Counted from the stretch's first letter, positions 14,667 to 55,689 are shown. The stretch: 64,000 nucleotides of DNA from an uncultured Candidatus Saccharibacteria bacterium (GCA_947085525.1 CAMTWU010000003.1:25866-89865), one strand, 5' to 3'. Made by a program: numbers and translations. Notes: generated from the sequence alone by a model not told the origin.

Positions 14667-14686
14667 CAGGTAACATAACCTTTACG

Positions 14687-14717
14687 AAAAACCCGCCTTT
14701 AATCAGGCGGGTTTTTC
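14687..14717 (+). terminator. Rho-independent terminator
   Basis: AAAAACCCGCC-tttaatca-GGCGGGTTTTT lies directly after the aquaporin stop. Confidence 0.85.
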
Positions 14718-14728
14718 GTGCTAAGATA

Positions 14729-52784: not shown

Positions 52785-53312
52785 ATGAGTTTTGCATTAA
52801 TCGACAAAGTCAACAAAGCGCAGATGAAGCCGTCTGTTGTTGATGCTCGTAGTGGTGACACAGTCAAAGTCCACCAAAAGATTAAAGAAGGTAACAAAGA
52901 ACGTATCCAGATATTTGAAGGCGTTGTTATCCGTACTGATCGCAAAAACAGCCACACTAGCCGTATCACTGTACGCAAAATCGCCAGTGGTGTTGGTGTC
53001 GAAAAAAGCTTTCTACTACACAGCCCATTAGTCGAAAAAGTCGAAATCGTTCGTCGTTCTAAAGTTCGCCGTAACTACCTCAGCTATTTGCGAGCTCGTA
53101 GCGGTAAGAGTGCTCGCCTAAAAGGTACTGATTTCGACCGCTTGGCAGTTAATGATGTACATGATCCTAAAGCCGAAGCTGAAGCCTTACGTTTGAAAGA
53201 AGAAGCTGCCAAGGCAGCAGCCGAAAAAGCCGAAGCAAAAGCCGCCGAGGAAGCTGAGCTTGCTGCAAAACAAGCAGAAGTCGAAGCTCGTCACAACGAG
53301 ACCAAAGAATAA
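52785..53312 (+). CDS. rplS: 50S ribosomal protein L19 with a C-terminal Ala/Glu/Lys-rich extension of about 60 aa
   Basis: The core GDTVKVHQKIKEGNKERIQIFEGVVI...RKIASGVGVEKSFLLHSP.VEKVEIVRR.KVRR is canonical bL19. Residues from about 115 to 175 are low-complexity (AEAEALRLKEEAAKAAAEKAEAKAAEEAELAAKQAE). Confidence 0.9.
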   Translation: MSFALIDKVNKAQMKPSVVDARSGDTVKVHQKIKEGNKERIQIFEGVVIRTDRKNSHTSRITVRKIASGVGVEKSFLLHSPLVEKVEIVRRSKVRRNYLSYLRARSGKSARLKGTDFDRLAVNDVHDPKAEAEALRLKEEAAKAAAEKAEAKAAEEAELAAKQAEVEARHNETKE

Positions 53313-53380: not shown

Positions 53381-53415
53381 CCCGGGTCGACACCAAATGA
53401 ATGGTGCCGCCCGGG
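53381..53415 (-). terminator. Hairpin plus U-run terminating the 54-codon minus-strand ORF
   Basis: CCCGGG..CACCA / TGGTG..CCCGGG, an imperfect stem of about 13 bp. On the minus strand it is followed by aggtcttc and then a T9 run (plus-strand A run 53364-53372). Confidence 0.5.
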
Positions 53416-53502
53416 TTAGGTCCGTCTTTGTGATCCAACTGCGCCGGAAAAACCGACTAGCCCTCCCGAGCTAGGATCTACAAAGGTGCGCGTCGCTGAG
53501 GA

Positions 53503-53667
53503 TCAGTCCGGGTTGAAGCCGGCGATGCCGCCGGTGGCGGAGTTGGCCTTGGTCGCGTTGCGCGCGTGCGTCGAGGAGGTCGTGCTGATCTGCATTTCGT
53601 TCTCAATTTCGGAGATGTTTCCGAGGGGTGTGCCGCGAGCCGCGGCGAGGGAATGCAGGTGCTTCAT
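53503..53667 (-). CDS. 54-aa ORF with extreme GC3 bias, unknown function (below the cutoff of the ORF track)
   Basis: MKHLHSLAAARGTPLGNISEIENEMQISTTSSTHARNATKANSATGGIAGFNPD. 47 of 54 codons end in G or C. The promoter is near-consensus and there is a downstream hairpin. The SD is weak. Confidence 0.45.
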   Translation of the reverse strand: MKHLHSLAAARGTPLGNISEIENEMQISTTSSTHARNATKANSATGGIAGFNPD

Positions 53668-53732
53668 ATAGATGAACCAACTTTCTCTACTCGTCTTTCA
53701 TTTCCACCAGGTGGTTACCTGATTTACATAGC

Positions 53733-53761
53733 ATAGTATCATATATTAAAAAACTTGTCAA
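53733..53761 (-). promoter_or_regulatory. Near-consensus sigma70 promoter driving the 54-codon ORF
   Basis: On the minus strand: TTGACA (53761-53756), a 17-nt spacer, then TACTAT (53738-53733). Confidence 0.6.
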
Positions 53762-53801
53762 CACTTTTGTCAAACTATTTTGAAACATAAAAATAGGCAA
53801 G

Positions 53802-53848
53802 AAAAAACCTTCGTGACGAGTGGTGCTTTTTAGGGCACCACTCGTCAC
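53802..53848 (-). terminator. Strong intrinsic terminator (perfect 14-bp stem) for a minus-strand transcript
   Basis: GTGACGAGTGGTGC (53813-53826), an 8-nt loop, then GCACCACTCGTCAC (53835-53848). On the minus strand it is followed by gaagg and TTTTTT (plus-strand A6 at 53802-53807). Confidence 0.7.
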
Positions 53849-54121
53849 AGATAACCAGGAGGGAGAAATCAGGTACCCGGAAAGTTACAGGAACTAGGCG
53901 GTCGTGTGATTTCAATTTTTACTGCAGGTACTGCATGCTGCCCTTTTGGGGACTCGTCATCAGTGCGTCCTTGGTTTACTACCCCAATTGAATGCGATGA
54001 ACCATCCAGGGTTCGAACTGCTATCGGGTAGGACTACTGCGCCTTCGTATAAGTTTTTTCTTGCCAGTGTTTGTATTGGTACTTCGAGACCTCTGCATCC
54101 ATGCATGTTTCTCGATTACTC
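53802..54121 (-). ncRNA. Candidate unclassified non-coding transcript of about 320 nt
   Basis: It is bounded by the promoter at 54156-54128 and the 14-bp-stem terminator. Internal hairpins include TCGAGA..TCTCGA, CTACCC..GGGTAG, GAACC..GGTTC and TGCAG-tac-CTGCA. The only ORFs are at most 49 codons and lack an SD. Confidence 0.35.
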
Positions 54122-54127
54122 ACTATC

Positions 54128-54156
54128 AGTATATTCCTCACGCTTACGCTTGTAAA
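54128..54156 (-). promoter_or_regulatory. Sigma70-type promoter of the candidate ncRNA
   Basis: On the minus strand: TTTACA (54156-54151), a 17-nt spacer, then TATACT (54133-54128). Confidence 0.55.
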
Positions 54157-54172
54157 CACTTTTTTGTATGAA

Positions 54173-54199
54173 ATACAAAAAACTACCATTTAGGTAGTT
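54173..54199 (-). terminator. AT-rich hairpin plus U-run ending the rightmost minus-strand unit
   Basis: On the minus strand: AACTACC-taaat-GGTAGTT, then TTTTT. A second hairpin, TTTTTTGTAT-ttc-ATACAAAAAA, abuts it. Confidence 0.5.
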
Positions 54200-54762: not shown

Positions 54763-55689
54763 ATGATAGTTGGAATTGACGAAGTAGGACGGGGTGCATG
54801 GGCAGGGCCACTAGTCGTTGGGGCGGTTGTACTGGGCGGTGCACAGATCGATGGTTTGACCGATAGCAAAAAGCTAACCGCAAAGCGTCGCCGAGAACTG
54901 GCGAGTGAAATCAAAGAAAAAGCTATGGCGATTGGTTTGGGTTGGGTATCAGCTGAGACAATTGACAAGATTGGTTTATCCGAAGCACTAAAAATGGCGA
55001 CCAGACTAGCGGTCAAAGAAATAAATGTTGAGTACGACGAGATCATTATAGATGGCACAATCAAACTACTGGATGATGATAGAGTTACGACAATGAAGCA
55101 AGCTGATTTGTTAGTTCCCAGTGTGTCAGCCGCCAGTATAGTTGCCAAAGTTGCTCGTGACTATTATATGAGTGAAGTTATTCACGCACAACATCCACAG
55201 TACAGCTTTGATCGACATGTTGGCTACGGTACGGCATTGCACTCCACGGCACTGACTGAACATGGGCCGATAGAACTACATCGGCTGAGCTTTACACCCG
55301 TCAAAAAAGCGCTAGGACTCGAAATATCACAACCAGTAAAGGTTGATAAAGTCGTTGAGACCGCAGGTCGTCAGGCAGAGGCTGTAGCTGCACGGTATCT
55401 TGCTAATCAAGGATATGAAATCTTGGCACAAAACTGGCGTACCAAATTATGCGAAATCGATATTGTGGCGCAAAAAGACCAGGTAGTACATTTGGTCGAA
55501 GTAAAATATCGCAAAAAGCAGACTCAAGGTGATGGCTTGCAAGCAATTACTCCTAAAAAATTACGACAAATGAAATTCGCTGCACGTATGTGGCAACATT
55601 GGCACGGATTCACGGGCGGCATGCAGCTGAGCGTCATATCAATGAGCGGCCAACCACCTCAGGTTGATGAATTTTTGGAAAGTATTTAG
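54763..55689 (+). CDS. rnhB: Fusion of ribonuclease HII and a YraN (UPF0102) endonuclease-like domain
   Basis: The N-terminal 190 aa or so is MIVGIDEVGRGAWAGPLVVGAVVL...DSKKL...ASIVAKV.RD (RNase HII). The C-terminal 110 aa or so is GRQAEAVAARYLANQGYEILAQNWR.KLCEIDIVAQK...VHLVEVKYR (YraN). Confidence 0.85.
   Translation: MIVGIDEVGRGAWAGPLVVGAVVLGGAQIDGLTDSKKLTAKRRRELASEIKEKAMAIGLGWVSAETIDKIGLSEALKMATRLAVKEINVEYDEIIIDGTIKLLDDDRVTTMKQADLLVPSVSAASIVAKVARDYYMSEVIHAQHPQYSFDRHVGYGTALHSTALTEHGPIELHRLSFTPVKKALGLEISQPVKVDKVVETAGRQAEAVAARYLANQGYEILAQNWRTKLCEIDIVAQKDQVVHLVEVKYRKKQTQGDGLQAITPKKLRQMKFAARMWQHWHGFTGGMQLSVISMSGQPPQVDEFLESI

Follow-up and report, generated by a model that had tools for sequence, protein, structure and literature searches.

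What does the long spacer between rplS and rnhB in an uncultured Candidatus Saccharibacteria bacterium encode, and does its minus strand carry a structured RNA gene of its own? Saccharibacteria are episymbionts with genomes of less than 1 Mb and very short intergenic regions, and a full-text literature search found no paper on small or non-coding RNAs of this group. The genome studied is 764 kb in 11 contigs (96.75% complete), and the window analyzed here is a stretch of 64,000 nucleotides taken from it (G000:C3:25866-89865), from the first letter of which positions are counted. In this window, the rplS–rnhB spacer spans 1450 nt, and on its minus strand lie three units in tandem, each with a promoter at its start and U-runs at its end. 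The middle one, unit B, is the subject of this study:

52785-53312, plus strand: rplS, one flank of the spacer that holds unit B
promoter at 53761 to about 53380, minus strand: unit C, promoter-to-U-run unit in the spacer
roughly 54121-53786, minus strand: unit B, about 335 nt
about 54751-54173, minus strand: unit A, promoter-to-U-run unit in the spacer
54763-55689, plus strand: rnhB-yraN fusion gene, the other flank of the spacer

Unit B is very probably a genuine structured non-coding RNA gene. The original prediction of a new structured non-coding RNA under a promoter of its own is supported by covariation, by the absence of a conserved ORF and by the lack of any Rfam match. Its proposal that the unit ends at 53802 has to be revised, as conserved pairing reaches 53796 and a second U-run reaches 53786. 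With its boundaries corrected to about 54121-53786, unit B is a previously undescribed RNA family of a known general kind. As we picture it, this would be a gene transcribed on its own into a highly structured non-coding RNA and belonging to a single Saccharimonadales (Saccharibacteria) genus.

The first line of evidence is the organization of the 5′ side of the unit, where the following features were located:

54159..54182, minus strand: A/T-rich palindrome UUUUUUGUAU-UUC-AUACAAAAAA (in DNA, TTTTTTGTAT-TTC-ATACAAAAAA), abutting the -35 hexamer of unit B on its upstream side
54156-54151 and 54133-54128, minus strand: sigma-70-type promoter, TTTACA, a 17-nt spacer and TATACT, with 10/12 consensus matches
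54084..54115, minus strand: P0, a 5′ hairpin of UCGAGA...UCUCGA around GCAU-GG-AUGC in the minimum-free-energy (MFE) fold
54066..54083, minus strand: CA-rich single-stranded linker AGUACCAAUACAAACACU, unpaired in the MFE and centroid folds

The promoter lies exactly where it had been predicted (TTTACA-17-TATACT at 54156-54128). Its -35 hexamer and 17-nt spacing are invariant in the 11 species loci scanned, among which the -10 hexamer takes the forms TATACT, TACACT, TATAGT and TACTAT. This conserved position and spacing suggest that unit B has a promoter of its own, as a generic small RNA (sRNA) gene should, and a strong conserved sigma-70 promoter would drive it. Transcription is predicted, from the position of the -10 hexamer alone, to start near 54121. 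The upstream palindrome overlaps the T-run of the unit A terminator hairpin and is kept in all aligned relatives, even in locus L015, where unit A is missing; it could serve as an UP element or as an operator. Within the predicted transcript, a 5′ hairpin folds at the P0 position in every homolog, each time from a different sequence; RNAalifold gave no formal consensus for P0, the two strands of which were offset by one column by MAFFT. The linker that follows has the family consensus ACCAAYACAAAMA, and several of its A and C columns are invariant in the alignment of 13 sequences.

The predicted transcript has no sign of being translated. Its longest ATG ORF is short and lacks a Shine-Dalgarno (SD) sequence, as had been noted, and measures 48 aa (54106-53960). 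The ORFs of 11 homologs differ in place, frame and sequence, which leaves no conserved coding frame, and no conserved small protein was found across these 11 sequences. Similarly, the RNA resembles no class that could be named, in agreement with the original prediction: no Rfam 15 family was found in the spacer at the gathering score, and the search at E<=10 returned noise only (17-21 bits, against gathering scores of 34-100). Several classes were examined individually. 6S RNA forms a rod, about 180-200 nt long and opened by a central bubble; its model RF00013 is absent from the spacer and from the whole genome, and the fold of unit B, at about 335 nt, is a multi-branch core instead. RNase P RNA (RF00010) and tmRNA (RF00023) were both located on contig C5 with strong scores, and ARAGORN detected no tmRNA in the window. 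The RNA of the signal recognition particle (SRP) was rejected on the grounds that RF00169 and RF01854 gave no match, that unit B is confined to one genus and that no SRP54-family protein is detectable.

The SRP searches also gave a result that concerns the genome as a whole, in which they detected no part of the SRP pathway. Neither RNA model matched anywhere in this genome, and RF00169 was found in 0 of 41 genomes (this one and 40 related Saccharimonadales). The SRP54 M-domain (PF02978) and GTPase domain (PF00448) were both absent from this genome, and in the 41 genomes the latter gave just short P-loop matches that did not exceed about 22 bits. The same searches detected 12-14 of 14 control genomes with RF00169 and both Pfam models, and 7 of 14 with RF01854. 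A literature search returned no statement on a missing SRP in these bacteria; one paper mentioned host genes alone.

The second line of evidence is the fold. Downstream of the linker, the following elements were recognized:

54065-54051, minus strand: 5′ strand of P1, GGCAAGAAAAAACUU, conserved and A-rich, pairing with AAGGUUUUUUCUUGCC
53913..54050, minus strand: variable central domain in the MFE fold
about 53953-54050, minus strand: long irregular hairpin in the central domain
53939-53952, minus strand: small hairpin CCC-CAAAA-GGG
53923-53935, minus strand: small hairpin UGCAG-UAC-CUGCA
53866..53912, minus strand: P3 hairpin, with an outer helix AAAUCA / UGAUUU around an inner stem-loop
53849..53865, minus strand: pyrimidine-rich single strand CUCCCUCCUGGUUAUCU, anti-SD-like, from the fold and the alignment
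53813..53848, minus strand: T1, a GC-rich hairpin with a perfect 14-bp stem (53813-53826 / 53835-53848) and an 8-nt loop, abutting the 3′ strand of P1
53811-53796, minus strand: 3′ strand of P1, AAGGUUUUUUCUUGCC, made of the supposed terminator U6 and CUUGCC, the exact complement of GGCAAGAAAAAACUU
53786..53795, minus strand: second U-run UAUUUUUAUG, 0-3 nt beyond P1, the probable 3′ end

The local stems named in the original prediction appear in the MFE fold. T1 had been singled out as the strongest hairpin in the window; this is roughly right, since a single longer perfect hairpin exists there, of 15 bp at 14684-14719. The original prediction also called for the folding energy to be compared with shuffled controls, and the stretch 54121-53802 does fold more stably than chance (z-score of -2.73, with 0/100 shuffles folding as well). 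Once the 3′ end is shifted to 53786, which includes the full P1 helix, the z-score becomes -4.51, again with 0/100 shuffles as good. An internal GAGGC/GCCUC pairing drawn by eye was discarded as inconsistent across lineages.

The fold could be examined in homologs, which were collected by searching for bL19-like proteins and then for contigs encoding near-identical copies; the contigs stem from environmental assemblies, among them groundwater ones such as those of the Hainich wells. This gave 34 copies of unit B, corresponding to 15 distinct sequences, 13 of which were retained from 8 lineages; the two sequences dropped were L186, which has Ns and is otherwise identical to G007, and L196, which is partial. 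The covariation alignment (A5) comprised 12 sequences, from which the poorly alignable central domain was removed, and the structure tested consisted of P1, P3 and T1. In this structure, 91.0% of the cells were paired, against 43-50% when the 3′ partners were slid by 1-3 columns, and 22 of the 42 pairs had changes on both sides, a number matched by 0/500 shuffles. In P1, 95% of the cells were paired and 4 pairs had changes on both sides; the P3 outer helix was 90% paired, with such changes in 4 of 7 pairs and with the variants AUAUCAC/GUGAUAU, AAGGACGAC/GUCAUCCUU and AGAUACCAG/CUGGUAUC; and in T1, 9 of 12 pairs changed on both sides. The central domain aligns poorly between the two subgroups of the family, and in the second subgroup (the G002, L018 and L015 lineages) it forms one long four-segment hairpin with 6 compensatory pairs. 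P1, P3, T1 and the central domain covary, and the covariation across relatives that had been proposed as a check is found in the first three over a sample of 8 lineages, all of one genus.

Among these helices, P1 is the main new result. It comprises 11-17 contiguous bp across homologs (in 12 of 13 sequences by script, and in L175, with 11 bp, by eye; the L175 pairing is included among the 12 rows of the covariation count). Its compensatory variants include GGCAAG/CUUGCC, GACAAG/CUUGUC, GAUAAG/CUUAUC and GACGAG/CUCGUC, and the lengths of its A-run and U-run vary in step between homologs. It would close the core by joining the A-rich 5′ segment to the U-run and the bases just after T1, and inside it would lie the variable central hairpin domain, P3, the short C/U-rich single strand and T1. 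Scanning for a P1-type helix next to a U-run returned nothing in the long spacers of other genera except one 10-bp match with two G·U pairs; about 1% of shuffled spacers contained one in the same scan.

Two complementary strands around a core could also be a property of the DNA, such as an inverton, the remains of a mobile element or retron a1/a2 repeats. Indeed, inverted repeats of 14-17 bp flank some 240 bp, P1 flanks the core as a1/a2-type repeats would, and a reverse transcriptase exists elsewhere in the genome. However, P1 carries U·G pairs at two positions, which would turn into A·C mismatches if the other strand were the RNA, so that the pairing makes sense on one RNA strand only and fits the strand transcribed from the promoter. 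An inverton was rejected on these G·U pairs, on the same orientation of the unit in 34/34 independent contigs and on the lack of a recombinase among its neighbors. A retron msr-msd was rejected because no reverse transcriptase is adjacent; the only one in the genome is on contig C1, beside an Avd-like gene, and the neighbors here are rplS and rnhB. Unit B is also single-copy, with no paralogs elsewhere in the genome, and has no match in phage records. We consider a DNA feature of this kind extremely improbable.

The position of P1 bears directly on where the RNA ends. The transcript had been thought to stop at the T1 hairpin followed by U6. The T6 run is present, but it is separated from T1 in this genome by a 4-nt spacer, AAGG; across homologs this spacing is 4-8 nt, and it is 18 nt in L204, in which the first U-run is interrupted (GGCUCUUUCUUGUC) and the P1 helix and second U-run are retained. 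The transcript probably does not end at U6, because U6 is a strand of the covarying P1 and the run is broken in L204. Moreover, the selection on the CUUGCC/GGCAAG pairs implies that the transcript must run beyond U6. A second U-run of 4-8 U follows P1 by 0-3 nt in 13/13 sequences, and in each of them P1 and this run provide the stem and immediate U-run expected of a generic sRNA gene. As P1 covaries, has G·U pairs and always precedes the second U-run, the RNA probably ends near 53786 rather than at U6. P1 and the second U-run would have the geometry of a terminator and T1 would be a structural hairpin stacked on P1, although it is unusual for the two strands of a terminator stem to lie 250 nt apart. 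Unit B offers an unusual case in which to study termination and RNA stability, since a terminator-like U-run is also a strand of a helix spanning 250 nt. By the same pairing, P1 would shield the 3′ end from exonucleases, making for a stable RNA.

The joining of the two ends also raises the possibility of an mRNA with a 5′-3′ fold-back, similar to the type I toxin mRNAs hok and aapA1, in which a tiny or fast-evolving peptide would be encoded and its translation locked by the helix. Long-range 5′-3′ end pairing is a hallmark of these mRNAs (hok tac/fbi and Helicobacter pylori aapA1); the fold-back stabilizes the mRNA and keeps it inert until it is processed. These mRNAs share with unit B a conserved long-range pairing of the 5′ region with the very 3′ end, in transcripts of about 300-400 nt. 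In addition, the 5′ strand of the helix of unit A has AAGGAG and then a start codon in this genome, G001 and L204. In contrast, P1 of unit B has no SD sequence followed by a start, no conserved ORF or toxin ORF accompanies it, and neither a hydrophobic peptide nor an antisense partner is evident. Even the ORFs of unit A share no sequence beyond the closest pair. Such a toxin-like mRNA is highly unlikely.

How widespread is the RNA? With BLAST and nhmmer, only close relatives were seen to have unit B, at the same rplS–rnhB site. A covariance model, R1, built on 130 positions of the unit B 3′ domain, matched 9/9 genomes of the GTDB genus and gave no real match in about 148 other genomes of the same family; two weak family-level matches (L215 and L216) lie inside coding sequence and were dismissed as chance. 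Among 80 species loci, unit B is present in the two closest relatives only, and units A, B and C were found in none of 80 metagenome loci (bL19-seeded, L19 identity <=85%). An identity of 16 nt to G000:C1:53313-53328 is sense-to-sense, inside an ORF and with E=0.22, and was also attributed to chance. Unit B is restricted to one genus. Its presence in every genome of that genus suggests that it is probably under selection and probably abundant.

The gene order rplS-rnhB is maintained across the order, with a spacer of 4-3235 nt in 80 Saccharimonadales species (loci L015-L094). The neighbors of unit B (rplS, rnhB-yraN, malic enzyme and a Y-family polymerase) are housekeeping genes in the same order as in genera without the RNA. 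In many other genera, the spacer measures 500-1100 nt and bears no resemblance to the island of units A, B and C.

The island itself looks, from its sequence, like a tandem array of related RNA genes comprising at least A and B, given the build of unit A and the weak R1 matches to A or C in two relatives. Unit A is built like unit B, with a 5′ hairpin, a long-range helix and a U-run, in a sequence of its own: GAGACAAGGAGAU (54691-54679) pairs with AUUUCCUUGUCUC (54234-54222) and is followed by a U-run. The design of this helix, of 12-15 bp, is also found in G001, L204 and L175. Units A and B have in common the 5′ hairpin, the AGACAAG.../...CUUGUCU ends, a GGGUGG...CCACCC hairpin and a U-run that closes the unit; no U-run follows T1 in unit A. 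The weak R1 matches were to the 3′ end of unit A in G001 (39 bits) and to unit C in G003 (30 bits), and the kinship of unit C is based on this match and on the shared hairpin motif. The number of units is one in L015, two in G007, three here and four in G001, and unit B would be the founding member of the array, with 1-4 copies between species.

Two observations concern the small ORFs of the neighboring units. In unit A, what looks like an SD sequence, AAGGAG, is one strand of its helix, and the lineages do not share the small ORF that follows. In unit C (53381-53761, minus strand), the hairpin GCCGCGGCUCGCGGC lies in a GC-rich ORF of 54 codons and has a compensatory change in G001 (GCCGC-UUUUA-GCGGC); the start of this ORF is not kept in G001 or G007. 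It may be that unit C is, like unit B, an RNA gene and does not encode a peptide.

An array that fills the spacer between two conserved genes, with its minus-strand units heading toward the 3′ end of rplS and in a spacer that is a hotspot of length variation across the order, could act locally through its transcription. It could insulate convergent rplS from divergent rnhB, produce antisense read-through into rplS or cause promoter interference with rnhB. However, internal helices far from either gene covary, which transcription per se would not need, and each unit has its own promoter and U-runs. L015 has a separate bidirectional terminator between unit B and rplS, and about half of the related species manage with a spacer of <250 nt. 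Local action in cis is in our view very unlikely.

Taken together, the best explanation, which we hold tentatively and at a little under an even chance, is a genus-specific, trans-acting non-coding RNA gene, sealed by P1 and set in a tandem array. Unit B would act in trans as a stable, self-sealed RNA, and the exposed C/U-rich stretch or the CA-rich linker would pair with the ribosome-binding regions of mRNAs. C-rich regulatory RNAs of Gram-positive bacteria pair with mRNAs in this manner. Base pairing in trans is the leading candidate mechanism, although we would not call it probable, and a protein-binding or processed structural RNA comes next. The SD-complementary stretch CUCCCUCC pointed out in the original prediction is present within 53849-53865, but what is common to all lineages is just a short YCUC core. 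When all start regions of the genome were scanned, one notable match was found, to the ribosome-binding site of a DUF4287 gene (2389-2670): the C/U strand at 53867-53849 can form 19 bp with 2365-2384, with one G·U pair and one bulge. This match was equaled by 1/150 shuffled seeds, and, as three seeds were tried, its significance is marginal. The complementarity was absent when the orthologous 5′ UTRs of six other species were compared with their own RNAs. The DUF4287 gene is a candidate target in this genome, and the pairing is a lead, not a finding. Against the C-rich, SD-targeting sRNAs of the RsaE/RoxS and LhrC type, unit B has one unpaired C/U stretch and this one 19-bp match, which is not conserved.

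The dimensions of unit B also speak against simple base pairing: at about 335 nt and with a closed core of several helices, it exceeds typical base-pairing sRNAs in size and complexity, so that a role in binding protein or as a scaffold fits equally well. In such a structural role it could act as a scaffold or a sequestering RNA, or belong to a ribonucleoprotein; alternatively, P1 could be a processing stalk, where cleavage by RNase III, as in rRNA precursors, would free a core of about 240 nt from the 5′ leader and 3′ tail. This would account for a large RNA with several covarying helices inside the P1 duplex, and the failure to find a conserved mRNA target points the same way. The GGGUGG...CCACCC motif of T1 and the AGACAAG/CUUGUCU ends of P1 are common to units A, B and C, as expected of a recognition element for a common protein or nuclease. 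However, no gene for a partner protein is linked to the unit, and there is no similarity to a protein-binding RNA of Rfam. We regard a structural or protein-binding role as somewhat unlikely.

Returning to the trans-acting RNA that we favor, several known systems offer partial parallels. Staphylococcus aureus RNAIII is likewise several hundred nucleotides long, has its own promoter and contains many hairpins arranged by long-range helices, and C/U-rich unpaired motifs near its 3′ hairpins pair with SD regions. Unlike RNAIII, with which it has no relation in sequence or in Rfam, unit B has no peptide and a single, weakly conserved C/U motif, its closing helix uses the U-run itself, and it belongs to a single Saccharibacteria genus. 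Listeria LhrC1-5 and Vibrio Qrr1-5 are also adjacent, related RNA genes that have individual promoters and terminators and vary in copy number, and LhrC directs UCCC motifs against ribosome-binding sites. Those RNAs are near-identical and about 100 nt long, whereas the units here measure 330-600 nt and share their architecture, the AGACAAG/CUUGUCU ends and the GGGUGG hairpin. Finally, the pairing over 14-17 bp of the sequences that flank the core is reminiscent of the processing stems of rRNA precursors and of the closing stems of 6S, RNase P and SRP RNAs, but the latter three RNAs are universal or at least broadly distributed and unit B is confined to one genus.

In this small genome, 1.45 kb of 764 kb is devoted to what looks like an array of related, strongly promoted RNA genes without a conserved frame. 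Unit B is a well-supported new RNA family with covariation and is suited to a family model; its narrow distribution limits its immediate impact. One could also imagine, as a rather improbable extension, that the island represents a new class of self-sealing RNAs in which one helix is both terminator stem and protective clamp, and which duplicate and diverge fast in conflict or in the interaction with the host bacterium or phages, through a protein partner or target. If so, 1-4 tandem copies with little kept sequence would fit a role in conflict or interaction rather than in housekeeping regulation.

A last observation concerns the reverse transcriptase of this genome. At G000:C1:1186-2568 (L211), a 361-aa reverse transcriptase is encoded beside a 134-aa protein resembling a four-helix bundle and similar to Avd, and the pair adjoins a GC-rich stretch at the end of the contig. 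Because it lies beside an Avd-like gene, the only reverse transcriptase of the genome appears to be of the diversity-generating retroelement type, and L211 is probably such an element, with both the Avd and the retroelement assignments made by eye.
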